Assembly (NCBI GenBank): GCA_016204045.1
Contig: JACQLQ010000001.1
Span: 257,792 to 321,791, forward strand
Length of the DNA stretch: 64,000 nt
Reading direction: 5' to 3'
Origin: Parcubacteria group bacterium
GTDB taxonomy: Bacteria; Patescibacteriota; Minisyncoccia; Phycocordibacterales; UBA2135
Every line of letters begins with the position of its first letter. The first letter of the stretch is position 1. Both the position numbers and the translations under genes were made by a program. Of this stretch, positions 1 through 38,114 are shown one piece after another. The notes under the pieces were generated by a model. The model saw only the letters and a list, made by a program, of their open reading frames with translations, had not been told where the DNA came from and did not search any database.

Positions 1-2
1 CG

Positions 3-1223
3 TTGGTAGAAATCGGGGGCACGGTGGGCGACTACCAGAACACCCTTTTTATCGAGGCGGCGCGTGTCATGCACTTGAACCACCCCGGTGATGTCATTTT
101 CATCATGCTCTCGTACCTCCCTATACCAAAAGTCACGGGGGAGATGAAGACGCGTCCGACGCAAAACGCGGTGCGTCAGCTCAACTCCTACGGCGTCCAG
201 CCGGACATCATCATTGCGCGTAGTGAGGTGCCGCTCGACAAACGAAGGAAGGAGAAGATTGCTGTGACGTGCAACATCTTGTGGGAGAACGTTATCTCTG
301 CGCCGGATATCGAGAGCATTTACGACGTTCCGATCAACTTCGAAAAGGACAAGATAAGCGAAAAGCTCTTAAACGCACTCTCGCTCAAGGCAAAGCGGGG
401 GAGCGACCTTAAGCGGTGGCGCGCTTTTGTTGCAAAGACAAAGACGGCGCAAACGCCGGTCAACATCGCAGTTGTCGGCAAGTACTTCGACACGGGCGAC
501 TTCACGCTCTCGGATTCGTACATCTCTGTCATCGAGGCGCTCAAGATTTCCGCCTATCACGCCGGGAGAAAGCCCCGTATCACATGGCTCAATGCCATAG
601 ACTACGAGAAGGACCCGCGCAAACTCCGCGAGCTCAAAAAGTATGATGGGGTTTTGATCCCTGGTGGCTTTGGCGACCGTGGAGTAGAGGGCAAGATGCG
701 CGCCATCAAATTCGTCCGTGAAAACAAAATCCCGTATTTTGGCCTCTGTTACGGCATGCAACTCGCTATCATTGAATACGCACGCAATGTCGCCGGGTTA
801 AAGGGGGCACACACTACGGAAGTAAATCTCGACACCTCTCACCCGGTTATCGACATTATGCCGGAGCAAAAGAAACTTTTGGAACGACAGGAGTATGGTG
901 GGACCATGCGGCTCGGCGAGTACCCAGCGCTTTTGAAGAAGCAAACAATTGCACGGAGGGCGTACGGGGCGGAGGTCGCGCGAGAGCGACACCGTCATCG
1001 GTACGAAGTGAATCCGGGATACATTGAACGCTTGGAGGAGACAGGTCTTGTTTTTTCCGGCACTTCGCCTGATGGGAAACTGATGGAGATAGTGGAGCTT
1101 CCAGAAAAGGTGCACCCCTTCTTCCTCGGTACGCAGTTCCACCCAGAATTTCACGCTCGACCCCTAAGCCCGCATCCGCTTTTTAACGCGTTCATTAAAG
1201 CGGCCTTGCGCGCGCGACATTAG
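3..1223 (+). CDS. pyrG: CTP synthase, C-terminal part including the glutamine amidotransferase domain. The 5' end lies upstream of the window.
   Basis: GATase motif GLCYGMQLAIIEYARNVAG, plus HRHRYEVN and the typical PyrG C-terminus. The ORF runs off the window start. Confidence 0.9.
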   Translation: MVEIGGTVGDYQNTLFIEAARVMHLNHPGDVIFIMLSYLPIPKVTGEMKTRPTQNAVRQLNSYGVQPDIIIARSEVPLDKRRKEKIAVTCNILWENVISAPDIESIYDVPINFEKDKISEKLLNALSLKAKRGSDLKRWRAFVAKTKTAQTPVNIAVVGKYFDTGDFTLSDSYISVIEALKISAYHAGRKPRITWLNAIDYEKDPRKLRELKKYDGVLIPGGFGDRGVEGKMRAIKFVRENKIPYFGLCYGMQLAIIEYARNVAGLKGAHTTEVNLDTSHPVIDIMPEQKKLLERQEYGGTMRLGEYPALLKKQTIARRAYGAEVARERHRHRYEVNPGYIERLEETGLVFSGTSPDGKLMEIVELPEKVHPFFLGTQFHPEFHARPLSPHPLFNAFIKAALRARH

Positions 1224-1306
1224 CGTGTTTGTTGAGTTGCGTTTTGATAGTGAATACGGTAGTGTGGAGAGTATTGTTTTAAAAATTTAGTCTTGTTTTT
1301 AAGAGT

Positions 1307-1573
1307 ATGCATCAAGGGAATTGGACATGTAGTTCGTGCGGAGGATCGATAACAGAGCTTCCATTTGAACCACGAAGCACTACTAACTTATTGTGCCGAG
1401 CGTGCCACGCCTCGAAAGGGGGAACGCGTCGCGGGAATGGGAATGGAAATGGTGAGCGCAAGATGTTTGAGGGCAACTGGCAGTGCGCAGATTGTGGTAA
1501 TGCAATCACGAAGCTTCCATTTGAGCCACGTGAGACAGGCAATCTCCGCTGTCTCGTTTGCTTTAAGAAATAG
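1307..1573 (+). CDS. Small protein with two tandem C4 zinc-finger repeats (CxxC-x18-CxxC, each containing LPFEPR). Resembles TraR/DksA-type zinc fingers.
   Basis: Internal duplication GNWxCxxCGxxITxLPFEPRxTxNLxCxxC seen twice. Followed by a strong terminator. Confidence 0.55.
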   Translation: MHQGNWTCSSCGGSITELPFEPRSTTNLLCRACHASKGGTRRGNGNGNGERKMFEGNWQCADCGNAITKLPFEPRETGNLRCLVCFKK

Positions 1574-1586
1574 TTTTTAGCTTGAA

Positions 1587-1627
1587 AACAGGGCACACCG
1601 CCGTACGGCGGTGTGCCCTGTTTTCGT
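1587..1627 (+). terminator. Rho-independent terminator
   Basis: 15-bp perfect GC-rich stem (cagggcacaccgccg/cggcggtgtgccctg) followed by TTTTCG. Confidence 0.6.
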
Positions 1628-1767
1628 TCTGTAATAAGCTTTTTTAGCGACCCATCGGCACCGTTGGAGAGGGGGCTTGACAGGTCATTACTAGTATGCT
1701 AAGTTAGGCACGGAACGCGCTCCTGCGTTCGAACCCCGAAACCACAACCACGAGAGGAACTACTCCG

Positions 1768-2265
1768 ATGCGCATGCTCATCTCTGGCTTCGCCGCCATG
1801 GTCAACAGCGCGATGCAGCAGGGTCTGTCCGAGTTCAAGCGCTACACCGACAAGGACACCCTTCGTGCGGCAGTCGCGTCCGCCACTCTGACCGGCTGGG
1901 CCGACGGCAGCTTCGACCCCAACGAGAAGCGCAAGGCGATGACGGTGCTGACGAAGCACCCGGCCATGGCGCACTTCAAGATGGCCGATATCACGACCAC
2001 CTGGGGCGAGCTCGACGGCGTCTACATGATCGATCCCACCATGGGCGACGACCAGGCCCTCCAGTGGATCAACGCCGCCCGCGCCAAGCCCGAACCGGTC
2101 CGTCGCGTCATCGGTATGATCGGCTGCGCTGTGGCCGGTGCCGACGACAACTTCGACGCCAACGAGGTCAACAAGGTGAAGGCGACGTGCATTGCCCTTG
2201 GCCTCGCACCCTCGACCGTTGCGCCGCTCGTCACCGCCGCCGGCAAGCACGGCATCGCACTCTAA
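1768..2265 (+). CDS. terB: TerB-like tellurite-resistance/stress protein
   Basis: Paired acidic motifs GWADGSFDPNEKRKA and AGADDNFDANEVNKV are typical of the TerB fold. Local GC about 65%. TTGACA-type promoter at 1676. Confidence 0.7.
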   Translation: MRMLISGFAAMVNSAMQQGLSEFKRYTDKDTLRAAVASATLTGWADGSFDPNEKRKAMTVLTKHPAMAHFKMADITTTWGELDGVYMIDPTMGDDQALQWINAARAKPEPVRRVIGMIGCAVAGADDNFDANEVNKVKATCIALGLAPSTVAPLVTAAGKHGIAL

Positions 2266-2483
2266 GCTCTTTCATCTCAACATTTTTTATCTTCAGGCAC
2301 CCGCAAGGTGCCTTTTTCGTTGTTTCTTAAAGGTCTTTGAGATCACCCCACCATCCCAACCCAATAGTGGGCTTGACATATTTGGTGGGTATGCTAACAT
2401 GTTCCTTGGATCCAATGCTGGATTCACCTGGGAAGTCCACCGGAAACCCAGGTACAACCCTGCAGGAAAAAGGACACAACCCA

Positions 2484-2909
2484 ATGAAGACGTACACCGG
2501 ACTCACTGCCATTGCCGTTGCTGCCGCCGTCCTCGCCGATGGTGTCGTCGACACCGCCGAAGTCGCCGCGCTCCGCAAGTACATCTTCGCCGACGGCAAG
2601 GTCGACGCGGATGAATTCCACCTCGTGACCGTCATCAACAACGCCGTCGCCAAGAGCGAGAACGCCGGCCACGACATGCCCGGCTGGACCGCGCTCTACA
2701 CCGACGTCGTCGCCGCCTACGTGCTCGAGGACGAGTCGTCCCCGGGCGAGGTGAGCGAAGCCGAGGCCACGGAGCTCGTGCGCGCCTGGTCGGGTGACAG
2801 CACGTTCGATGCTCGCGAGAGCTCGGCTGCCCGGACCATCGCCACGCGTGCGACCAAGATGCCGGAGGGCTTCCGCGCCTTCCTCACCGGCCGCGGCATC
2901 AGCGCCTAA
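2484..2909 (+). CDS. Second TerB-like domain protein
   Basis: ADGVVDTAEVAALRKYIFADGKVDADE repeats. Start taken at the internal Met with an AAAGGA upstream. High GC. Confidence 0.6.
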   Translation: MKTYTGLTAIAVAAAVLADGVVDTAEVAALRKYIFADGKVDADEFHLVTVINNAVAKSENAGHDMPGWTALYTDVVAAYVLEDESSPGEVSEAEATELVRAWSGDSTFDARESSAARTIATRATKMPEGFRAFLTGRGISA

Positions 2910-3017
2910 CGTCGGCGAGTCCAATACGAGTAGTACCTTCGCCGCAGAGTAGTAAACGCATTCGCGCCCAGCTGGACCACCGGCTGGGCGTTTTAATTTT
3001 ACGAAACGAAGGAATAG

Positions 3018-3046
3018 TTGACATGCATGGTTCTGTATGGTAGTCT
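3018..3046 (+). promoter_or_regulatory. Sigma70-like promoter (TTGACA-17-TAGTCT) with an 8-bp inverted repeat (cctggtac/gtaccagg) just downstream.
   Basis: Hexamers read directly from the sequence. Confidence 0.3.
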
Positions 3047-3097
3047 CTCCTGGTACCAGTACCAACCGAGTACCAGGAGCAGAGGAGCAAACGCGCA

Positions 3098-3493
3098 ATG
3101 ACGTGGAAGGGAAAGTTCATCGGACTTGTGCTTGCGTTGACGGTTGTCGTCGGCGGCCCCTACATGATGTGGGCTTGGCCGACCGTTGATGAGGCGAAGA
3201 TCGTCGACGCCTCGAACAAGATCATCACTGGCACGACGAATGACCAGTTCCGCATCGAAACCGTGCGCGCAGACACCGGCAAGGTGTACGTGTATCGGAA
3301 CGATGATGCGCCGTACGTGTTCCCGTTCTTCTTCTACTTGAAGTGGGACAGCCAGGACCTGAACACTCGTGCCAAGTCGTATGCCGGCAAGGACGTCATT
3401 GTCTGCGTCCGGTCGTATGGTTGGCGTGTCCCGTTCATGAGCTGGTTCCCCAACGCGACAAGCTTGTGGGCCAAAGAGGGCGATAGCTGCTAA
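3098..3493 (+). CDS. Membrane-anchored hypothetical protein within the Ter cluster
   Basis: N-terminal TM helix, good RBS (GAGGAG). No recognisable family. Confidence 0.5.
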   Translation: MTWKGKFIGLVLALTVVVGGPYMMWAWPTVDEAKIVDASNKIITGTTNDQFRIETVRADTGKVYVYRNDDAPYVFPFFFYLKWDSQDLNTRAKSYAGKDVIVCVRSYGWRVPFMSWFPNATSLWAKEGDSC

Positions 3494-3504
3494 CGCAGTT
3501 CTAC

Positions 3505-3536
3505 GCCGACGCCGTCCTTTATGGGCGGCTTTTTAG
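3505..3536 (+). terminator. Rho-independent terminator
   Basis: gccgtcc...ggcggc stem followed by TTTTT. Confidence 0.4.
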
Positions 3537-3683
3537 TTGTTTTTTTGTCTATTTAAAATTATCCTTAGAACGATTAGGGTGTTTCCAAACTATTTGGACC
3601 ATGAAAGGGGTTGACTTCTATCCCCAATTATGGTATACAATCTCTGGACATGTGCGTCCAGAGGACAACGAAAAGGAGTCCTT

Positions 3684-4739
3684 ATGAACACAATTAATTT
3701 ATTGCTTGGGATGGAGGTGTGGGGCTACAGCCTCCTTAGCGTCCTGCTCTTCTGCACCGCCATTGTGGGCATGCTGGTCATCGACTTGTACGCCCACCGT
3801 GGCGACAAGGCAGTGACGTTCAAGAATGCAGCCTTGTGGAGCGTGGTGTGGGTTTCAATCTCGCTCCTCTTCGCATGGCACATCTTGCTTACACGCGGAG
3901 GTGAGGACGCCTCGCTCTTCATGGCGGGGTACCTGCTCGAGCAGTCACTCGCCGTCGACAACCTCTTCGTCTTCATGGCGGTCTTCGCAAGCTTCGGCAT
4001 CATTGGCGGTCTGCAACACCGTATTCTCTACTACGGCATTCTCGGCGCCATTGTCTTGCGGCTCCTCTTCATCGGTGCGGGTACTTCGCTCCTGGTTGCG
4101 GGCGATTTCTTCGCCGCGGGCGAGTGGGTGCTCGTCGGCTTTGGCGCGATCGTCCTCTGGTCTGCATGGAAGATGCTCCAGGGGATGCGCGAGAAGGATG
4201 ACACCGACGAGATCGAGGACTACTCGAACCACTGGTCCATTCGCGGCGTCAAGCGCTTCATCCCGGTGTGGCCGCGGCTTGTGGGGCACAACTTCTTCAC
4301 GTGGCAGAACGGCATGCTCTATGCCACACCGCTTCTCCTGTGCTTGGTCTGCATCGAGTTCTCGGATGTGATGTTCGCATTCGACTCGGTCCCGGCGGTC
4401 ATCGCGGTGACACAGGACCCGTTCCTGATCTACACCTCGAACATCTTTGCCGTCTTGGGGCTTCGGTCCATGTACTTCCTCCTCGCGGCAGCGAAGCGAT
4501 TCCTCTGCCACCTCGAGAAGGCGGTCATCGCGATCTTGGCCTTCATCGGTTTCAAGATGTTGATTCCGCTCTTCGACTTGGTCTCCGTACCCATTACCGG
4601 ACAGCCGTTCCTCGACCTCTTCGGGATCGAGCACATCTCTGCGATGGCAAGCCTCGCCGTCGTCGGGACACTGCTCGCGACTGGCATTCTCGCTTCAGTC
4701 GTCTTCCCCGAACGCGAAGGTGACGAGGCAAAGGCCTAA
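3684..4739 (+). CDS. terC: TerC-family integral membrane protein
   Basis: Multi-TM protein with the TerC/Alx-type motif AVDNLFVFMAVF. Start at MNTIN behind an AAAGGAG RBS. Confidence 0.8.
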   Translation: MNTINLLLGMEVWGYSLLSVLLFCTAIVGMLVIDLYAHRGDKAVTFKNAALWSVVWVSISLLFAWHILLTRGGEDASLFMAGYLLEQSLAVDNLFVFMAVFASFGIIGGLQHRILYYGILGAIVLRLLFIGAGTSLLVAGDFFAAGEWVLVGFGAIVLWSAWKMLQGMREKDDTDEIEDYSNHWSIRGVKRFIPVWPRLVGHNFFTWQNGMLYATPLLLCLVCIEFSDVMFAFDSVPAVIAVTQDPFLIYTSNIFAVLGLRSMYFLLAAAKRFLCHLEKAVIAILAFIGFKMLIPLFDLVSVPITGQPFLDLFGIEHISAMASLAVVGTLLATGILASVVFPEREGDEAKA

Positions 4740-5124
4740 TTTCATAGTGATGCACCCGTCGCGCAAGCGGCGGGTTTTTTGTTTTTCACCCGCACAAATC
4801 GAGTCTTTTGACGAGATTTTGCGGCGTGTGAAAAACAAACCCCGTACCAATTTTGCCCCGGGAGCCATGCGATGCGCGTGCGCCGAATAGGCGCACCCCT
4901 CATTGGGCGAAGCGCATCGCCGCCTGGATATTTGGAAGACACATAGCATGACTCACACCTCATTTGTGCAGAGCAAAATTGGTATCGGGGTAGTTAATTT
5001 GCACCAAACATCCAAGCGACCGAATTATTGACATAGACGCGTAATAATGCTAGCGTGTTTTTGGCAACACAGGCCCGAAAAGGCTTGAGATGTTGTCTGA
5101 CAACCAACACACGAGGCACAACCA

Positions 5125-5730
5125 ATGGATCTCGCACGCAAGGGCGCGGAAGCGCCAGTCGACCCCTTCAAGTCGCTCGCTGTCACCATGAGATGGACGG
5201 CCGCAACCGACCTCGACCTCGCGGTGCTCGCCGAGCCCAAGGGCGGCGGCGCGCCGAAGATGTTCTACTTCGGCAACATCAACAAGGATGACGGCCAAGG
5301 CGTCGTCCAGGCGCTCGATGCGCCGCCCTATATCAAGCTGTCGGGCGACGCCGGCGTCGGCGACACCAAGGCCGCGGACGGCAAGGGCAACTGCGAAGAG
5401 CTCAAGATCACGAGTCTCGCTCCGTGGGGCAAGCTCCACATCATGACGTGGGACTACGGCGCCATCGGCAAGGGCGAGGGCGCTCGCTTCCAGTCGAGCG
5501 GCGTGACGCTCGAAGTCAAGGACGACAAGGGCACCGCCCACAAGGTGGCGCTCTCGCTCGTCGGCGATGGCCTCGCCGTCAAGGAGAACGTGTGCGTCAT
5601 CGCGACGATCGACAACACGGGCGCCTATCCGAGGCTCGTGAACTCGAGCGCGGCGGCCCTCTTCGGCGGCGCGAGCGGCAAGAAGCTGAACGTGAACGAT
5701 CTCACCGCTCTCGTTCGTTCGGCGGCCTAG
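5125..5730 (+). CDS. terD: TerD-domain protein
   Basis: About 200 aa with the TerD-type DLDLAVL motif and Gly/Asp-rich beta sandwich. GC about 65%. Confidence 0.75.
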   Translation: MDLARKGAEAPVDPFKSLAVTMRWTAATDLDLAVLAEPKGGGAPKMFYFGNINKDDGQGVVQALDAPPYIKLSGDAGVGDTKAADGKGNCEELKITSLAPWGKLHIMTWDYGAIGKGEGARFQSSGVTLEVKDDKGTAHKVALSLVGDGLAVKENVCVIATIDNTGAYPRLVNSSAAALFGGASGKKLNVNDLTALVRSAA

Positions 5731-5798
5731 ACTTCCACCCAGGCAAAGGCGGGAACGGCATCGTGCCGTTCCCGCCACGGCCCAACCAAGGAGGACCG

Positions 5799-6617
5799 AT
5801 GGATCTCGCGACGAAGGACAGGGAACTTCAGGCGAAGGACCCGGCAATGTTCGATCTGGTGAAGAAGCTCGATCCGCATTTGGAGCGGCATGGCCTCGTG
5901 GGCCACGTCGCCCGGGTGGCACTCGTGCTCGACGTCAGTCGTTCGATGGAACGCCTCTATCAGAGAGGATTAATCCAAGGACTTGTCGATCGTTTCCTCC
6001 CGCTCGGTCACCGCTTCGATGACAACGGGGCAATCGACGTCTTCACTTTTGGCATCAAGGCCCACGACATCGGCGAGGTTTCAACAAGTGACCACAATGG
6101 GTTTGTCGCGCGCCATATCAACGTAAACGATCTGGAGGGTGGCACACAATACGCGCAGGCCATCCGGGCAGTGCGTCGTCACTACTTCAACTACGACGAC
6201 TCTCGGCGTGCTCCGCATACCGACGGTGGTCCGCCGATCTATGTCGCATTTGTGACCGACGGTGAGACGTACGACGAATCGGAGACCGTTGATCAGGTTC
6301 GGTCTGCGTCGCATGAGCCGATCTTCTGGCAGTTCATTGCTCTTGGCGCAGACTATGTGCCGGGACAGATGACCACCGGAAAAGGTCTCTTTGGTGGGTC
6401 GAAGCAAGTCCCCGTGCAGCCTCCAGAGCAATTCCGCTTCCTGGCAGAGCTCGACACACGTGTGCGTGGTCGGTTCGTGGACAACGCAGGCCTCTTCGCA
6501 ATTCGGTCGCCAGCACCCGAAGACATCTCGGACGAAGAGCTCTTCGCGCGCCTAATGAGTGAGTATCCCCAATGGCTGGAGCGTCCGGAAGTCAAACTGC
6601 ACCTTTTGATGAAGTAA
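5799..6617 (+). CDS. von Willebrand factor A domain protein, TerY-like
   Basis: MIDAS motif VLDVSRSM. Start at MDLATK with an AAGGAGG RBS. The upstream part of the longer ORF is Arg-rich junk. Confidence 0.7.
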   Translation: MDLATKDRELQAKDPAMFDLVKKLDPHLERHGLVGHVARVALVLDVSRSMERLYQRGLIQGLVDRFLPLGHRFDDNGAIDVFTFGIKAHDIGEVSTSDHNGFVARHINVNDLEGGTQYAQAIRAVRRHYFNYDDSRRAPHTDGGPPIYVAFVTDGETYDESETVDQVRSASHEPIFWQFIALGADYVPGQMTTGKGLFGGSKQVPVQPPEQFRFLAELDTRVRGRFVDNAGLFAIRSPAPEDISDEELFARLMSEYPQWLERPEVKLHLLMK

Positions 6618-6621
6618 TAGG

Positions 6622-6665
6622 AAGCAGACGCCGCATTCCCCTCGGGAATCGGCGTTTTTTTATTT
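6622..6665 (+). terminator. Terminator at the end of the Ter cluster
   Basis: Imperfect GC stem plus a T7 run. Confidence 0.4.
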
Positions 6666-6754
6666 TCTCACCACGCTATGTGGAAGGACTGGACAAGTTT
6701 ATATAAGTATGCTAAAAGATATTTAGTAACCGCTTCAGGACGAGGAGAACGAAC

Positions 6755-6922
6755 ATGCTGTGGTTGATCATTGCGTTGGGTTGGCTCGTTGTCGGCCTTT
6801 GGACCGCCATCTTTTTCCACAAGAGAATTCCTTGGCATCTCAAGGTTTTGGCCGTTGCATTTTGGCCCATGGCACTCGTCTTGATTGGTCTCCTCTCCCC
6901 AGGGGAAAAGAAGGCCTCCTAA
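6755..6922 (+). CDS. 55-aa two-helix small membrane protein. Not in the ORF track because it is under 60 aa.
   Basis: GAGGAG RBS 7 nt upstream of ATG. Hydrophobic MLWLIIALGWLVVGLW... Terminator directly after. Confidence 0.4.
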   Translation: MLWLIIALGWLVVGLWTAIFFHKRIPWHLKVLAVAFWPMALVLIGLLSPGEKKAS

Positions 6923-6934
6923 TTTTTTACCACA

Positions 6935-6956
6935 CCCGTCCTTTCGACGGGTTTTT
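6935..6956 (+). terminator. Rho-independent terminator
   Basis: cccgtc/gacggg hairpin followed by TTTTT. Confidence 0.5.
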
Positions 6957-7029
6957 ACATGGCAGAAATTAGGGACACTAAAAAACTCCCACAGGGGGAG
7001 TGCTTACATGATATTGTTTTCTGCGCGTA

Positions 7030-7347
7030 TTACCGAGGAGGGTTGGGGCCGAGGACTTCTTCTGCTGGTCTCTCCCAACCTATGGTGTCGAGAGAAATTG
7101 CTCCTGGCGCGTGCCGTGCCAACTCACTTCCGGCAAAGGCAAGCCAGAGCAACGCGTCGGCGACGTCCTTGCCGTTACGAGCGGCGCGGCGAAGGTCGTA
7201 AAGGCTCTGTTCCCAGTCTCCGATTTCTTTTTCATACGTCTTTCCATCCAGCACGACAGTAACTTTGCCGACGACTTTGTAAGGTTTTCCATCAAGCGGT
7301 ATGACGACCTTTTCTACGAATGGTTCTGTGGTCGCTGGCTTATTCAT
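7030..7347 (-). CDS. Hypothetical protein. Start uncertain: ATG at 7347 or TTG at 7404.
   Basis: The minus frame reads protein-like (KVVIPLDGKPYKVVGKVTVVLDGKTYEKEIGDWEQ), whereas the overlapping plus frame is low-complexity. Confidence 0.45.
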   Translation of the reverse strand: MNKPATTEPFVEKVVIPLDGKPYKVVGKVTVVLDGKTYEKEIGDWEQSLYDLRRAARNGKDVADALLWLAFAGSELARHAPGAISLDTIGWERPAEEVLGPNPPR

Positions 7348-7465
7348 TGTGATTTCACTCACGGAATCTTCCGTACTTATATCACGGCGATTGTCGTGGA
7401 GCAACGCCGCTTGAATAGGGAGTCTTTTTGCGATATTCTCAAAAGGCGCGTAAGCACTTTTTCTT

Positions 7466-7536
7466 TGCGGGATCGTCTAATGGTAGGACATCGCCCTCTG
7501 GAGGCGAGTATCTTGGTTCGAGTCCAAGTCCCGCAG
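7466..7536 (+). tRNA. tRNA-Gln(CUG)
   Basis: Cloverleaf with U1:A72 and G73, Glu/Gln-type 3-bp D-stem, anticodon loop CUCUGGA, T-loop TTCGAGT. Confidence 0.8.
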
Positions 7537-7572
7537 TTCGAAGAGAGCAAGAACTGGTCAGCTTCAAAAATT

Positions 7573-8349
7573 ATGTCACTAGAGAAACCACAACAAGAAC
7601 CTAAAAACCCGCTTACGTCAGAACACTTGAAAGAAGGCGTGCGCCCAATCATTGCTGCAGTTGGTACCAGAGAACAATTTGAAAATCACCCCGGTGCCGG
7701 AAGGGACCTTTTCAATGCTACCTTGAGGGCCTTGGGGAACACCCCAACAAGAAATGTAAATTATTACGGAAACCCAGCAGAGTTAACAAGCGAAAGCTTT
7801 AAAAATGCTGGGATGCATTCCTATGTGATATCCACCATAGACAATGCCAACAAGTTTTCTGAAGGATACGCGGATTGTACTGGCCTGGTTGTTGCCGGAC
7901 AGGACAAAGAAACGGGCGAGAATGTATCATTTTTGAGTCACCAAGATCCTTCTTATTTTTTGACACTTGTGGGACTTGAAGCTAATTTTAAAAGAGATTT
8001 AAAAGAACGCCTCGAGGAGTTTAAAAGGAGGTGTAAAGAAGGAACTATTGATGCGGTGATTGTCGGTGGGAATTATTTTATAGATAAGTTTCCCGAGCAC
8101 GATCATGAGTACCGAGCGAAGTACTTGCAATCAATCAATCTCCTGAAGGGTGAGGTGTCTCAAGTTTTTGGGTTTGAACCCGTAGTGATGACGGGCCCCA
8201 AAATAGTGTCAGGCAAAGACAATATTTTTTACGACAATGAGCGCCGGAGATTATATGTCGTGAGGCCCGAGGTCGGTGATGCCTCTACTGAAAGTTTTGC
8301 GCCAGGAACGGTAAAAGAACAGGAGAAGAAATGGGGACAGCAAATGTAG
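7573..8349 (+). CDS. Hypothetical protein of about 258 aa in a low-GC segment. Possible Cys/His hydrolase.
   Basis: The track ORF 7111-8349 spans the tRNA, so the start was moved to MSLEK at 7573. Candidate catalytic residues DCTGLVVAG...SHQDP. GC about 42%. Confidence 0.5.
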   Translation: MSLEKPQQEPKNPLTSEHLKEGVRPIIAAVGTREQFENHPGAGRDLFNATLRALGNTPTRNVNYYGNPAELTSESFKNAGMHSYVISTIDNANKFSEGYADCTGLVVAGQDKETGENVSFLSHQDPSYFLTLVGLEANFKRDLKERLEEFKRRCKEGTIDAVIVGGNYFIDKFPEHDHEYRAKYLQSINLLKGEVSQVFGFEPVVMTGPKIVSGKDNIFYDNERRRLYVVRPEVGDASTESFAPGTVKEQEKKWGQQM

Positions 8350-8370
8350 ATATCCTCTTCTCTTGCGGCA

Positions 8371-8838
8371 GTGCGTTGCTATACTATAGGTATGTCACTT
8401 ATAGACCTCGATGCGTTTAGTCTCGATGCGCACAAGAAGAAAAGCCTACTCCACTATTACGGAGACAACGTGCGCACGGTGTTTTTAATCGGAAGCGCTA
8501 CCGTGCTGTTGTCTCTCCCGATTTTTGCGCGCGTCATTGCGGACTCAATCATTTACCCCGTAACAGCAATCGCAGTGTTTGTTATCGCCGCGGGCCTTGC
8601 GAATCCAGCCCAACGATGGACGATGGTCCTGAATACAATAGTTGCGGCTGGAGCCGTCGCATTCTTTGAATACCAAGCACTTTTGGTCTCAGGCCTCCCA
8701 GCCACCACAGACTGGCAACAGAGCTTCTTGTTTTTCGAAAACCACGCGCTCGCGCTGTTGTTTCTTGTCGCGCTCTACTACAGCATCAAGACGACGCGCG
8801 GACGATTGCTCAAGAAGAATGTTACTGACCAAGAATGA
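8371..8838 (+). CDS. Hypothetical multi-pass membrane protein
   Basis: 4-5 hydrophobic helices. No family recognised. Confidence 0.5.
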   Translation: MRCYTIGMSLIDLDAFSLDAHKKKSLLHYYGDNVRTVFLIGSATVLLSLPIFARVIADSIIYPVTAIAVFVIAAGLANPAQRWTMVLNTIVAAGAVAFFEYQALLVSGLPATTDWQQSFLFFENHALALLFLVALYYSIKTTRGRLLKKNVTDQE

Positions 8839-8926
8839 GCGGCAAGAAACCGAATCAGCACAGTAGCAGAAAAGACACCTTAGCCCGAAGGGTGTTTTTT
8901 GTTTGCCGTAGTATATACTTACTGTT

Positions 8927-9508
8927 ATGAACAAAGTACTTGTGTGGATAGTGGCCGCCCTCGCCGTGATCGCGGGTGGTTTTTGGGTCTTGAACGCATA
9001 TATCTATGATGAGAAACAAGTTGTTGCCGCAGCCAATTACAAAGATGCGGAGTATGTCATTGAAGGTGAGCGCGTGACACTCAAGGATGGCGTTTCGGAA
9101 ACCGATATTGAGATAGGCTCGGCTTCGGCGACGGTTACTACCAAGTACTTTGGCAATGAATTAAAAACCGATCTGGACGGAGATGGCCGCGAGGATGTCG
9201 TATTCCTCCTTACACAGAATCGTAGCGGCTCCGGCACCTTCTTTTACGTCGTTGCCGCGCGCAACACCGAAGAGGGGTACGTCGGCTCTGATGGGTATTT
9301 CCTAGGGGACAGGATAGCCCCCCAGACTACTGAAGTGAGTCGGAATCCACGACATAAGTACGTCATTGTCGTAAATTACGCGGATCGTGCAGCTGGGGAA
9401 CCAATGACCGCCCGACCTTCTCTAGGTAAGAGTGCTTACATCAAACTCGACCCAGTATCTATGCAATGGGGCATCGTGGAGCCAAACTTCGAAGGTGAGT
9501 CTCGATAG
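8927..9508 (+). CDS. Membrane-anchored or secreted hypothetical protein
   Basis: N-terminal TM/signal anchor followed by a DLDGDGREDVVF motif. Confidence 0.55.
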   Translation: MNKVLVWIVAALAVIAGGFWVLNAYIYDEKQVVAAANYKDAEYVIEGERVTLKDGVSETDIEIGSASATVTTKYFGNELKTDLDGDGREDVVFLLTQNRSGSGTFFYVVAARNTEEGYVGSDGYFLGDRIAPQTTEVSRNPRHKYVIVVNYADRAAGEPMTARPSLGKSAYIKLDPVSMQWGIVEPNFEGESR

Positions 9509-9524
9509 GCAATCCTAAAGAACC

Positions 9525-10622
9525 TTAAGCGCGCCCAGTCCACATCCGCGCTTCCTCCTTGAGCGAACGGTGTATTTCCACCATTGATCCAAGCCACGAC
9601 GTGGTGTGGTAGCGCAGGCCGTGCTTTACGCAAAACTCCCGCACTATTGTTTGTGCTTCCCCGTAGTTGAAGCGCGGCATTGTCGGGAACAAATGATGTT
9701 CGATTTGAAAGTTTAGTCCGCCAAATACATACGATGCAAGCCATGATGAGTGTAGGTTGCGCGTTAGCGTGATCTGGTGCGCCCAATTGAATGTCTCGTC
9801 TTCGTCGAGCATCGCTTCCCCTTTGTGATTGGGTGCAAAAACTACCCCGAGATATGCGCCGATAATGACAAACGCGGTAGTGAGGAAGAGGAGTGCGATG
9901 GGAAGCGGTAGGAAATAGAATGGTAGTCCTATTGTTATGATAAAGTGCGCGGCCATTAACAGAAGCTCGATGATGGATCGAATTGTCATGTTGCTGAAGA
10001 TAAACTTCATACTGTAGGCGATGTTGTAGGGGTATACAAATGCGAGTGCGGGCCAAAACATGATGTGTTGGTAGGGGAATACCCATTTTTTGTAAAAAGG
10101 AGAGCGTCGTGCCGCTTGTGCCCCAGAAAAGACAAACGGGATCTCCAGATCGGGGTCATGGCCAATGTGATTTGGATTTTTGTGGTGAGCGTTGTGCTTA
10201 GAAAACCACCGACTTTCGCTCAGTCCGCCCAAGAGCCCCCATGCAAGCATCCCCCAGAAACGATTTCTCTTGTTGGATGTGAACACTTCCTCGTGTGAGA
10301 GATCGTGCCCAATCATACCAATTTGCACAGAAAAAAAGGAAAACACGAGAGCGTTCACTATTTGGAATACTGCATTGTCGCTCGCTGTAAGAGCGAACAA
10401 GCTCGCCCCGACGCCGAGAATACTGACTCCGCCCGTCAGAGCATAGTGCCAGTAGGTCCGTTTAAACAGACCCCGTTCAGTAACCTCCACAAGGAGCGAC
10501 TGGTAGAGTTCTATAGGAAGAGCCATTTTGTGAGCAGGGGTCGACGGATCGCCTGTTTTAAGGGCTTTTTCACTCATTGCCCGTATTCTACCGCAATCAT
10601 TAGTATATAAAAACACCGTCAT
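9525..10622 (-). CDS. Membrane fatty-acid desaturase family protein
   Basis: Three histidine boxes: HDLSH, HNAHHKNPNH, QIEHHLFP. Confidence 0.75.
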   Translation of the reverse strand: MTVFLYTNDCGRIRAMSEKALKTGDPSTPAHKMALPIELYQSLLVEVTERGLFKRTYWHYALTGGVSILGVGASLFALTASDNAVFQIVNALVFSFFSVQIGMIGHDLSHEEVFTSNKRNRFWGMLAWGLLGGLSESRWFSKHNAHHKNPNHIGHDPDLEIPFVFSGAQAARRSPFYKKWVFPYQHIMFWPALAFVYPYNIAYSMKFIFSNMTIRSIIELLLMAAHFIITIGLPFYFLPLPIALLFLTTAFVIIGAYLGVVFAPNHKGEAMLDEDETFNWAHQITLTRNLHSSWLASYVFGGLNFQIEHHLFPTMPRFNYGEAQTIVREFCVKHGLRYHTTSWLGSMVEIHRSLKEEARMWTGRA

Positions 10623-20245: not shown

Positions 20246-21043
20246 TCAGGCGGTGGCTCTCGCCGCCGCCGCCCTTGTGGCGCGGTTAGCGTAGATCTTC
20301 TCTAACATCTTCCCAATCGGGATGACGTAGTCGACGAGCGTTCCATCGGCGTCGCGGAAGTTCCCATTGACTTTGATGTATCCCTCGTCGATAAGCATTC
20401 TCATCGCCAAAGCGAGTGACTGGGGGATGCCGTTCACGCGCGTCGCCTCGAAGATGCGTAGGCTGCGACGGCCCACATGTGCGTATTCAGTCGGCTGTTT
20501 GTCCTGCTCCCGAATCTGCGTGACGCGGTTGAGGGCCGCTGCATACGCGAGGTAGCTGGAGAGGCTGCCGTCATAGGCGAATGCGTGCTTGATGCGCGCC
20601 CGCCTCGATTGCCTAGAGTAGGCACCCAAGAGGGAGGCAACAAGGCGCGGCCAGGGGACGGCATGCCAGCGACATTGCTTCTTCTCGCTGACACCTTTGC
20701 CGTGAGAGTGCTCGAGCACGACTTCGTCTCTGCCCCGGCTCGACAGGAAGGCGATTACATGAGCCGCCGTTGCCGTTGGGTCATCGAGATCCGAGAACCG
20801 CTCCATCGCTGGCATGGCCCCGAGTGGGTACACGTCGTCGTAGCGGTAATGAAGGTCCGCGAGCAATATGAACGGTGCGTCGAGGAGTCGTTCGATTCGG
20901 TGGTTAGCCGAGACGAGGGTAGGGGCGACGAGACGACTGAATGCCTCTCGCTTGATGCCCGACAGAGCGTCGTCGGCAAGGTTGCCTCTGATGATGTTCA
21001 AGGATTTCCTCCGCGTTTTCCGCCTTTCGGCGGTCCAGGCCAA
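20246..21043 (-). CDS. Hypothetical protein, higher GC (about 58%). Probable start at TTG 21001 behind GGAGG.
   Basis: The minus frame is protein-like, whereas the overlapping plus ORF is Arg/Pro-rich. No family recognised. Confidence 0.45.
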   Translation of the reverse strand: MAWTAERRKTRRKSLNIIRGNLADDALSGIKREAFSRLVAPTLVSANHRIERLLDAPFILLADLHYRYDDVYPLGAMPAMERFSDLDDPTATAAHVIAFLSSRGRDEVVLEHSHGKGVSEKKQCRWHAVPWPRLVASLLGAYSRQSRRARIKHAFAYDGSLSSYLAYAAALNRVTQIREQDKQPTEYAHVGRRSLRIFEATRVNGIPQSLALAMRMLIDEGYIKVNGNFRDADGTLVDYVIPIGKMLEKIYANRATRAAAARATA

Positions 21044-37693: not shown

Positions 37694-37721
37694 TTGACTT
37701 TTGCTACCAATTTGCTATAAT
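37694..37721 (+). promoter_or_regulatory. Consensus promoter TTGACT-16-TATAAT
   Basis: Hexamers read directly, 34 nt upstream of the 37755 ATG, which has a GGAGG RBS. Confidence 0.45.
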
Positions 37722-37754: not shown

Positions 37755-38114
37755 ATGCCGGTCCGTTATAAGACCATCTCAAACCGTCGTGGCGTCGTCT
37801 TGTTCCGGCCCGAACCGAAGCAAGAAACTGTCACCGCTACGGTGACGGCGAGAGTGGCCCCGAATGACCCCGTCGTGGTCCTTGTGCGGGGAACTCGTGG
37901 CGTCGCTCCCTCTCCGCAGGGCAACACCGAGAACACTTCCGGGGTGCGCAAGGCTGTAGCCGTGGAGGCCGGACCCTATGTGCCCACTAAGTGGGAAATG
38001 CGGGCGCCGAAGTGCATCGATGTTCGGTCCGCCACTCGTCGGTTCTGGAAGGAGGCAAGACGTCGCGAGCGCGTGCGTCGTGAGCGCACGCGTCAGAGCT
38101 TCGCATTCGCATAA
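37755..38114 (+). CDS. Hypothetical basic protein with an Arg-rich C-terminus and about 60% GC
   Basis: Strong promoter and RBS. Higher GC than its surroundings. No family recognised. Confidence 0.4.
   Translation: MPVRYKTISNRRGVVLFRPEPKQETVTATVTARVAPNDPVVVLVRGTRGVAPSPQGNTENTSGVRKAVAVEAGPYVPTKWEMRAPKCIDVRSATRRFWKEARRRERVRRERTRQSFAFA

Follow-up and report, generated by a model that had tools for sequence, protein, structure and literature searches.

Ter systems are described, in the sections of PMC7824862 that deal with them, as assemblies in which TerB and TerD serve as ligand- or metal-binding sensors, TerC as the membrane effector and the vWA protein TerF as a scaffold below the membrane. 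TerC proteins export Mn2+ and metalate secreted enzymes, and in Bacillus subtilis meeF is located in the yceCDE-meeF operon together with three TerD-family genes (PMC10550928). Here, we analyzed a related locus in a stretch of 64,000 nucleotides (in the following, the window) from a 387-kb contig of a Parcubacteria group metagenome-assembled genome (MAG; GCA_016204045.1, contig JACQLQ010000001.1, positions 257,792 to 321,791). Between 1.7 and 6.9 kb of the window, seven genes on the + strand (g1 to g6 and s55) form a Ter-type module of high GC content. With moderate confidence, we regard it as a lineage-conserved module of a small Parcubacteria clade within the Candidate Phyla Radiation (CPR), which is old and has been maintained non-neutrally, and not as a recent genomic island.

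In full-text literature searches, Ter genes of Parcubacteria or Patescibacteria were not the subject of any paper retrieved. The locus documents a compact Ter-type module in the CPR, links to it two components that are rarely counted as Ter parts (DUF1523 and a membrane peptide of 55 amino acids, aa) and defines a rare family of predicted TerD fold that current Pfam models miss. The presence of Ter genes alone is unsurprising; unusual is a donor-like codon regime that persists across speciation and is gene-specific in a third lineage.

Gene content and base composition

The module consists of the following genes:

1768-2265, + strand: g1, TerB-domain protein, 165 aa (Pfam TerB 37.2 bits, cut-off 24.4)
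2484-2909, + strand: g2, acidic, all-helical and weakly TerB-like protein, 141 aa (Pfam TerB E = 0.021, under threshold)
3098-3493, + strand: g3, DUF1523 membrane protein, 131 aa, with one N-terminal transmembrane helix (Pfam DUF1523 74.2 bits)
3684-4739, + strand: g4, integral membrane protein of the TerC/Alx family, 351 aa when read from this ATG (TIGR03718 340.9 bits, cut-off 246; Pfam TerC 141 bits)
5125-5730, + strand: g5, divergent protein of predicted TerD fold, 201 aa (no Pfam model; fold evidence)
5799-6617, + strand: g6, vWA protein of the TerF C-terminal type, 272 aa (PF10138 vWA-TerF-like 165.4 bits)
6755-6922, + strand: s55, two-helix membrane protein, 55 aa, probable seventh member (no family match; next to the vWA gene in three lineages)

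The original prediction had listed six co-oriented genes, ending at 6670, for two TerB-like proteins, a small membrane protein, TerC, TerD and a vWA/TerY-like protein. Orientation and TerC were borne out, and s55, just past that end, probably belongs to the module as well. The remaining names needed some correction: only g1 passed the TerB threshold while g2 stayed below it, the membrane protein belongs to DUF1523, g5 has a TerD-like predicted fold but no match in Pfam or NCBIfam, and the vWA domain of g6 is of the TerF C-terminal type and not of the TerY type.

The expected compositional anomaly was confirmed when GC content was computed in windows and codon usage by gene, and it is far from even. 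The block from 1768 to 6617 has a GC content of 58.8% against 50.0% for positions 6618-64000, which is approximately 8 standard deviations above equal-sized windows (mean 0.501, standard deviation 0.011, maximum 0.535). The predicted range of 62-66% for the genes was nearly right for g1 (65%), g2 (68%) and g5 (66%), but g3, g4 and g6 reached only 57-59%. The signal is concentrated at third codon positions, where the GC content (GC3) of g1 to g6 amounts to 0.89, 0.88, 0.80, 0.82, 0.89 and 0.66, respectively, compared to 0.44-0.67 for the other genes of the window; at first and second positions (GC1 and GC2), the content is also raised in g1, g2 and g5. The long spacers within the block are host-like (0.43-0.53 GC), and only the 68-bp spacer between g5 and g6 is GC-rich (0.68). 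In the module, NNC and NNG codons are both favored, the share of C among codons ending in a pyrimidine, f(C given Y), reaches 0.65-0.94 against approximately 0.5, and A occupies only 0.01-0.15 of the 4-fold degenerate sites. This is the codon usage pattern of a high-GC genome, and an ultimately foreign origin of the module is therefore plausible.

Conservation in the sister genome and a third lineage

The clade was sampled by two MAGs, that of the window organism and a sister Parcubacteria MAG (GCA_016204005.1, L002), and by a few short metagenomic contigs. L002 contains the same six genes and the small membrane gene in the same order and with the same neighbors on both sides, namely a zinc-finger gene upstream and a tRNA-Gln, FA-desaturase, His-phosphatase, hydrolase, NUDIX, isochorismatase and nicotinate phosphoribosyltransferase (NAPRTase) genes downstream. 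Protein identities between the two organisms are 61-91% for the module and 62-90% for the flanks, with orthologue values of 91% for g1, 82% for g3, 0.82 for TerC, 0.85 for vWA and 0.62 for g5, and the long spacers of the block can be aligned. The bias is found in the sister genome as well, where g1 to g6 have a GC3 of 0.85, 0.89, 0.73, 0.79, 0.80 and 0.67 against 0.40-0.64 in the flanks.

Synonymous divergence between the two organisms was estimated from 4-fold sites as an F81 distance. Flank sites of this kind are 41% identical against 26% by chance, equivalent to a distance of 1.15, which is a rough value since it lies near saturation. For g1 to g5, the distance is 0.66, and the two genomes have a GC content of 0.83 and 0.82 at the sites. 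A neutral gene that evolved at the flank rate from a GC content of 0.95-1.0 at the time of the split is expected at 0.69-0.78 today, whereas g1, g2 and g5 are found at 0.80-0.89 in both genomes. In our reading, the cluster had its site and order before this split and has been inherited vertically since. It was probably acquired at some earlier time, and such an acquisition may be the source of its high-GC codon usage. An assembly or binning chimera was excluded: both junctions are common to the two MAG assemblies, and an independent Logan assembly contig matches positions 3282-6614 of the window at 99.97%.

Two contigs from one metagenome of the Joint Genome Institute (JGI), L007 and L011, represent a third lineage with a background GC content of approximately 0.41-0.48. 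Here, the order appears to be DUF1523-TerC-TerD-like, a K+ channel gene, then s58-vWA-TerB-g2. The GC3 values of TerC (0.41), vWA (0.40), TerB (0.33) and DUF1523 (0.42) are host-like, and only g2 (0.86) and g5 (0.71) are GC-rich. The 4-fold sites of g2 are near saturation between the window and L011 (0.49 identity observed against 0.43 by chance), with both copies at approximately 0.85 GC. Identities between the window and L007 are 0.67 for g5, 0.69 for TerC and 0.67 for vWA, while the TerB of L011 is only 29% identical to g1.

Origin and persistence of the GC bias

Since the bias outlasted near-saturating synonymous divergence and is gene-specific in the third lineage, it would have been held by a non-neutral process, for example selection that acts on synonymous positions or on properties of the mRNA, or the replacement of single cassettes. 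On present data, selection (or another non-neutral force) and cassette exchange are not separable. Only tentatively, and as the less probable, narrower claim, we suggest that selection at the nucleic-acid level actively maintains the GC-rich synonymous sites, for g2 and g5 in three lineages and for the cluster as a whole in two. The target of this selection could be unusually stable, hairpin-capped and individually terminated stress mRNAs or a stress-specific decoding regime. If this is true, the locus would be a long-lived, gene-specific codon-usage island in a streamlined CPR genome, in which atypical composition is a functional trait and no mark of foreign origin, and it would lend itself to the study of synonymous constraint on individual genes in an organism that shows little sign of ordinary translational selection.

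Two other causes were tried and rejected. Ordinary host translational selection is unlikely because groEL (f(C given Y) 0.54, GC3 0.56) and groES (0.44 and 0.54) carry no such bias and resemble the genome average. Antisense genes do not account for the high GC3 either, as the sense frames carry the homology and diverge in the order of third, first and second codon position. The long antisense open reading frames (ORFs) lie in the codon-complement frame, as is expected for GC3-rich genes. Over the whole of g2, stop-free antisense frames were found in the window (2427-3116, − strand), L002 (1068-1856, − strand) and L011 (2703-3278, − strand); they extend 50-200 nt beyond both gene ends in the three lineages, and the one in L011 was called by the JGI gene caller. 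These frames are probably a by-product of GC3-rich, GNC-rich codons, and a bolder variant in which they are themselves coding has a low probability.

Several points weigh against an old, vertically inherited and non-neutrally maintained module. The sampling behind vertical inheritance in the clade is thin, with one sister genome and few short metagenomic contigs. The synonymous divergence of the module (0.66) is lower than that of the flanks (1.15), which would also fit a later arrival or an exchange between lineages, and with a clock set by the module itself, neutral decay of an initially very GC-rich gene could come close to the value of g1. Moreover, g5 of L007 is as close to the window (67%) as that of L002 (62%), unlike TerC and vWA, which hints at lateral exchange or rate shifts. 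The mechanism of selection on synonymous GC is a postulate, and the unbiased groEL makes its translational form unlikely. Finally, the function is assigned by homology, with g5 and g2 below the Pfam thresholds, and a scan against RNA families revealed neither a yybP-ykoY riboswitch nor another known regulator.

Among the alternatives, it is unlikely in our estimate that the clade ancestor took up the whole cluster from a very GC-rich donor and that the bias has simply decayed slowly since, with the lineages at different stages of amelioration. Such a donor would fit the high-GC codon type and the Ala-, Gly- and Asp-rich proteins behind the raised GC1 and GC2 of g1, g2 and g5, and the outgroup lineages with host-like Ter genes look as they would after full amelioration. 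By our own estimate, the module distance of 0.66 roughly reproduces the GC3 of g1. However, the flank clock allows at most 0.69-0.78 at 4-fold sites, while g1, g2 and g5 of the window stand at 0.88-0.89, and the long spacers of the block are already host-like. In L011, g2 (0.86) lies beside TerB (0.33) and vWA (0.40) despite near-saturated synonymous sites relative to the window; neutral decay is disfavored because adjacent genes differ too widely (0.86 against 0.33-0.40).

It also appears rather doubtful that self-contained promoter-gene-terminator units were swapped among Parcubacteria lineages or replaced from an unsampled GC-rich relative, in which case a high GC3 would label the units from that source. 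The mosaic composition of L007 and L011, in which only g2 and g5 are GC-rich, would agree with such an exchange, and so would the discordant identities of the window to L007 and L002 (0.67 and 0.62 for g5, 0.69 and 0.82 for TerC, 0.67 and 0.85 for vWA), the 29% identity between the TerB of L011 and g1, and the gene order, which varies between lineages. A 144-nt terminal repeat on a further contig (L016) suggests a circular or tandem Ter unit of 3.2 kb. Yet the closest copies across lineages are just 53-68% identical, so that any exchange must be ancient and itself ameliorated by now, no GC-rich reservoir lineage was seen in the sampled lineages, and the longer L002 branches of g5 and g2 can explain the discordance as rate variation. 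Both genes are fast-evolving, with a nonsynonymous divergence (dN) of approximately 0.30.

High GC content in the window is not confined to the Ter block, as two further ORFs without a Pfam match show that GC-rich genes are scattered in the genome. The first (20246-21043, − strand) encodes 265 aa with a GC content of 0.61 and a GC3 of 0.74, and the second (37755-38114, + strand) a basic protein of 119 aa with a GC content of 0.63 and a promoter-like site at 37694. For the GC-rich stretch around the latter (37.7-38.2 kb), neither a match to an RNA family (Rfam) nor a fold signal was obtained. The gene pyrG (3-1223), located shortly before the block, has a GC3 of 0.67, the highest among the non-Ter genes of the window and similar to that of g6, which may be chance or a regional effect.

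Predicted promoters, leaders and terminators

The following features were predicted around the module genes, with free energies (dG) and z-scores relative to shuffled sequences where these were calculated:

1578-1632, + strand: terminator hairpin of the upstream zinc-finger gene, left module boundary (dG −40.8 kcal/mol, z −8.9, then UUUUCGUU); a terminator lies at the equivalent place in L002
1677-1705, + strand: promoter-like site of g1 (TTGACA, 17 nt, TGcTAAGTT extended −10; regular-expression match); −35 element and TATG.TAAGTT motif kept in L002
2295-2313, + strand: terminator-like hairpin after g1, kept in L002
2373-2400, + strand: promoter-like site of g2 (10/12 consensus matches, TG extension), kept in L002
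2408-2453, + strand: two hairpins in the 5' untranslated region (UTR) of g2 (fold prediction)
2964-2991, + strand: terminator-like hairpin after g2 (12-bp stem with 9 GC pairs, T-run), kept in L002
3018-3046, + strand: promoter-like site of g3 (regular-expression match); −35 element and TGGTAGTCT kept in L002
3511-3529, + strand: terminator-like hairpin after g3
3611-3639, + strand: promoter-like site of g4 (TTGACT, 17 nt, TGGTATACA); TTGACT and TATACAATCT kept in L002
3644-3682, + strand: 5' UTR hairpins of g4, the second pairing over the GGAG ribosome-binding site (dG −16.4, z −4.28; 0/200 shuffles as stable)
4754-4775, + strand: terminator-like hairpin after g4
5029-5057, + strand: promoter-like site of the g5-g6 unit (TTGACA, 17 nt, TGCTAGCGT); AATGCTAGCGTG kept in L002
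5063-5097, + strand: two-tier 5' UTR hairpin of g5, outer stem GCAACA/UGUUGU conserved in sequence
6626-6657, + strand: terminator hairpin after g6 (dG −20.7 and z −3.9 for 6618-6668, then U7)
6690-6718, + strand: promoter-like site of s55, resembling that of g1 (direct repeat D3, 73% identical to 1673-1702)
6934-6952: terminator-like hairpin after s55

Sites of the type TTGACA-N17-(TGn)TAnnnT were found upstream of g1, g2, g3, g4, g5 and s55, and terminator-like hairpins after g1, g2, g3, g4, g6 and s55. The hairpins of the two terminators that had been predicted to bracket the block are real (z −8.9 and −3.9), but they are not specific to its borders, with hairpins also following g1, g2, g3 and g4. 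Between g5 and g6, the gap of 68 bp contains neither a terminator nor a promoter. Judged from these signals, the module appears to be organized in six separate transcription units, and only g5 and g6 would share one. The promoter-like sites are probably of the host type, because the same form recurs 13 times in the window against 1.7 times in shuffled sequence.

In the folded leaders of g1 to g5, each begins with a predicted hairpin; only that of g4 clearly beats the shuffles (z −4.3), the others ranging from z −1.3 to −2.0. The first hairpin of the g2 leader recurs in L002 and L011, where its stem has undergone base changes (GGAUCCA/UGGAUUC, GAUCCA/UGGAUC and GAAUCC/GGAUUC), and the inner stem of the g5 leader differs in sequence among the window, L002 and L007 yet retains its pairing. 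An Rfam scan of positions 1-9000 (E <= 1) returned only tRNA and chance-level terminator-hairpin matches. Known riboswitches or small RNAs, including the Mn2+-responsive yybP-ykoY type in the TerC leader, received no support from it, and the g4 leader consists of two simple hairpins.

The spacer between TerC and g5 carries an insertion of approximately 200 bp (4785-4990) that is absent from L002 and L007 and occurs as a single copy in the window. It folds strongly on the + strand (dG −61.8, z −5.4) and may represent a small RNA or what is left of an inserted element.

Module proteins and proposed function

The assignment of g2 to TerB is weak. Sub-threshold TerB matches were obtained for 3/4 members of its family, hhalign of g2 against g1 reached a probability of just 16%, and the single-sequence AlphaFold2 (AF2) model was too poor for use (pLDDT of only 49). 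Its helices carry a repeated ADG-x-VD-x-x-E motif.

For g5, on the other hand, the AF2 model was confident (pLDDT 85.5, pTM 0.86). Its Foldseek match was SCP2 (9a6r_B; E = 4.6e-8, TM-score 0.64), which we take to be YceC; the name SCP2 is used by JGI for PF02342-containing proteins. Against the viral library, the best matches were phage "TerD-like tellurite resistance" proteins (E ~1e-8 to 1e-7, one of them at E = 8e-8 with a TM-score of 0.61), and the TerD crystal and NMR entries 3ibz and 2kxt were outside the top hits. Sequence comparison revealed far less: PF02342 was touched by only 2/21 family members at E >= 0.0045, a profile search of PDB sequences returned no TerD and nothing relevant, and hhalign to the TerD half of TerF-type fusions gave E = 3e-4 at a probability of only 40%. 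The family is rare, with 21 homologues among 5.8 billion protein clusters, and its acidic Ca2+-type loop SGDAGVGD...NEE is invariant or nearly so. Based on the model, g5 is predicted to have a TerD-like fold outside Pfam TerD; it is the single TerD-like gene at the locus.

Together, g5 and g6 look like a split TerF. In g6, the metal ion-dependent adhesion site (MIDAS) motif DxSxS (DVSRS) is intact at 5931-5945. Within each genome, g5 and g6 open with almost identical codons and residues, and the two N-termini co-vary between species: they read MDLARK and MDLATK in the window (5121-5151 and 5795-5825) and MNLAEK for both in L002. Gene conversion could account for this likeness, as could a signal in the start region of both genes or an N-terminal motif that both proteins have.

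The place of DUF1523 in the module is supported by a DUF1523 gene that adjoins a TerD family gene on the Pseudomonas megaplasmid pNY11382-IMP. Likewise, s55 is a probable member because its adjacency to the vWA gene persists in the window, L002 (5253-5429) and L011 (628-804), even though the genes of L011 are arranged differently. Kinase or phosphatase partners of the TerY type were not found for the vWA protein at the locus, and genes for phosphoribosyltransferases (PRTases), HAD, ATP-grasp and TelA proteins were absent from the ORFs at 1-10 kb of the window and from L002. The NAPRTase and NUDIX genes 6-9 kb downstream are neighbors of NAD-salvage type that are kept in L002 and are not known Ter parts.

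By analogy with described Ter systems, we favor a TerC-centered complex for metal and envelope stress. In this complex, g4 would conduct Mn2+ or other divalent metals through the membrane, and the acidic soluble proteins (TerB-type, TerD-fold and vWA) would assemble at its cytoplasmic face as a layer that senses and buffers metal or envelope stress, with DUF1523 and s55 as accessory membrane subunits. Three sequence features are consistent with the binding of divalent cations: acidic loops in g5, helices with the repeated ADG-x-VD-x-x-E motif in g2 and the MIDAS site in g6. For CPR biology, this suggests that reduced cells may invest in a dedicated device for divalent metals or envelope stress.

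That the module primarily serves the defense against phages or other invaders instead of metal homeostasis seems quite unlikely. As conflict systems, Ter systems have been proposed to block the entry of phages or xenobiotics, and they are described from jumbo phages and plasmids (PMC7824862). At the level of the genes, TerD-like and vWA-TerF-like members occur on the phage-like contig L005, the best structural matches of g5 in the viral library are phage proteins, and g2 and g5 evolve fast. On the contrary, PADLOC models match none of the seven proteins (E <= 0.01), the signaling and biosynthetic Ter parts (PRTases, HAD, ATP-grasp, TelA) are missing from the locus, its position is stable and not that of a variable defense island, and experimental evidence on TerC points to the export of Mn and other metals (PMC10550928). 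A defense role is possible, but unsupported here.

Distribution in other lineages

Besides L002, parts of the module were found in at least four further lineages, and the gene order varies among them. More distant lineages (L016, L017 and L020) carry subsets of the TerC, TerD-like, vWA and g2 genes at near-host composition, and other Patescibacteria have pairs of TerC and vWA-TerF-like genes, or vWA alone. A metagenome scan with the g2 alignment found no loci, and of 80 loci from a second scan with the vWA alignment, only L020 contained more of the module. In a scan of genome contigs with the TerD-like alignment, which used a loose peptide pattern, one Verrucomicrobiota locus was among the matches listed.

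Outside the clade, the best identities among 5.8-15 billion proteins were 50% for g5, 61% for TerC, 48% for vWA, and 60% and 44% for TerB (short contigs). The level of 61% for TerC is a plateau that includes Desulfobacterota and one Patescibacteria sequence. The nearest named relatives of vWA are fusions of TerD and vWA from Actinomycetota, Deinococcus and Massilia (40-47% identity). The search for a donor lineage, as had been proposed with the original prediction, thus ended without a close homologue, as no gene exceeded 61% identity in these collections and no taxon stood out.

Some of the contigs showed further peculiarities. In the third lineage, the K+ channel gene (Ion_trans_2; L007 2569-3054 and L011 3-560) apparently lies between the TerD-like gene and s58-vWA, split over two non-overlapping contigs, and its Ion_trans_2 part is followed by what, judged by eye, may be an RCK-type domain. 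L016, a JGI contig of 3353 bp, encodes DUF1523-like, TerC (apparently frameshifted), TerD-like and vWA proteins; its exact terminal direct repeat of 144 nt (1-144 and 3210-3353) yields a unit of 3209 bp, which may be circular, tandemly repeated or an assembly artefact. The phage-like contig L005 (GCA_024449685.1, JAANST012210380.1) has many small genes on the same strand and carries a member of the TerD-like family, a vWA-TerF-like/Copine protein, Band_7 and a Na/Ca exchanger (1724-2485, 10001-10552). In Desulfobacterales bacterium HSG16 (L004, 10001-14442), four paralogues share the MELKQKG TerD-like N-terminus, two of them with 177 aa, one with 368 aa and one with 385 aa on the opposite strand; they are located beside an M48-like peptidase gene and downstream of a sigma-54 activator gene, which is a different, expanded context of the rare family of g5.

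The tRNA-Gln neighborhood

The horizontal acquisition suggested by the original prediction, read as a recent island from a high-GC proteobacterium or actinobacterium, perhaps targeted to the tRNA-Gln and still of donor composition, is very improbable: the GC3 (0.66-0.89 against 0.44-0.67), the codon usage of the high-GC-genome type, the tRNA-Gln at a distance of 0.85 kb and nearest named vWA relatives that include Actinomycetota TerF proteins speak for it, but the cluster occupies the identical site in the one sister species at a flank 4-fold distance of 1.15, no integrase or att repeat accompanies it, its spacers resemble host DNA, as do the promoter-like sites and the terminators, the search of 5.8-15 billion proteins brought up no donor above 61% identity, and the tRNA is conserved in L002 with the variable DNA on its far side. 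Ter homologs in the same synteny in close relatives had been named with the original prediction as an observation that would refute it, and this is what the one available sister genome shows.

The tRNA-Gln itself is located at 7465-7537, in agreement with the predicted distance of approximately 0.8 kb. No integrase, transposase or other mobility gene was found among the window ORFs by the module, and no att-like repeat of the tRNA end, the only long repeats being the promoter look-alikes and the shared start of g5 and g6; integration targeted to the tRNA was rejected on the missing att repeat. The difference in gene content between the window and L002 lies past the tRNA, away from the module. 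At 7615-8349, the window has one low-GC ORF of 244 aa without a family match (GC3 0.44, local GC 0.41), while the counterpart in L002 (6010-7565) holds three different genes (103 aa, YecM and 188 aa). As a candidate for DNA gained or lost recently, this segment is to be preferred over the Ter block. For the calling of genomic islands, the locus is a caution, since a strong and clean compositional anomaly next to a tRNA gene is nevertheless conserved in place across species with near-saturated neutral sites.

On the other side of the module, a treble-clef zinc-finger unit is duplicated within the upstream protein of 88 aa (1307-1573), in which two stretches match zf_Tbcl_2. At the DNA level, the repeat copies lie 156 nt apart, and the protein is conserved in L002.

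Comparison with known systems

Of a classical tRNA-linked genomic island, the module has the atypical composition, the discrete block and the nearby tRNA gene. In contrast to such an island, it comes without an integrase, a repeat of the tRNA end or mobility genes, the same site is occupied in the sister genome, and the variable DNA is located beyond the tRNA.

The pair of DUF1523 and TerD family genes on Pseudomonas megaplasmids such as pNY11382-IMP has the same direct neighborhood of the two genes. Here, the identity is 36%, the TerD protein has 327 aa, and no TerC, TerB or vWA gene adjoins in the stretch examined.

The fusions of TerD and vWA of the TerF type (Actinomycetota, Deinococcus, Massilia) match g6 in their vWA half (40-47% identity) and align weakly with g5 in their TerD half (E = 3e-4). 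The order of g5 and g6 is that of the fused domains, but the window organism has two genes at a distance of 68 bp. Furthermore, g5 belongs to a separate rare family (21 members) with an insertion of its own, and in each genome, the two proteins start with nearly the same six residues.

In the yceCDE-meeF(yceF) operon of B. subtilis, TerD-fold proteins are likewise encoded with a TerC-family protein, and MeeF is an Mn exporter and metal chaperone (PMC10550928). Both loci likely follow a common logic in which soluble TerD proteins act as partners of a TerC conduit. In B. subtilis, the genes form a single operon under stress sigma factors without TerB, vWA or DUF1523, from which the module differs, and their TerD proteins match Pfam TerD, whereas g5 does not. 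Among solved structures, the best match of g5 is SCP2.

With the terZABCDEF clusters of IncHI2 plasmids and enterobacterial islands, as far as they are covered in PMC7824862 (ref. 152 therein), the module shares co-oriented genes for TerB, TerC, a predicted TerD fold and a TerF-type vWA protein, together with acidic metal-binding loops and an intact MIDAS motif. Where these clusters have 4-5 TerD paralogues (TerZ/A/D/E/F), the module has one divergent gene of this fold, and the fused TerF is split into a TerD-like and a vWA gene. An additional TerB-like gene, the DUF1523 gene and the 55-aa membrane peptide have no counterpart in the clusters as described there, and linked PRTase, HAD, ATP-grasp or TelA genes are lacking in the module, which is chromosomal in a CPR bacterium and apparently composed of separate transcription units. 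By analogy, the locus would be a relative of the Ter clusters that works alike, and it is distinct from them in its single, divergent TerD-fold gene, its split TerF, its extra genes, its apparently separate units and its CPR host.

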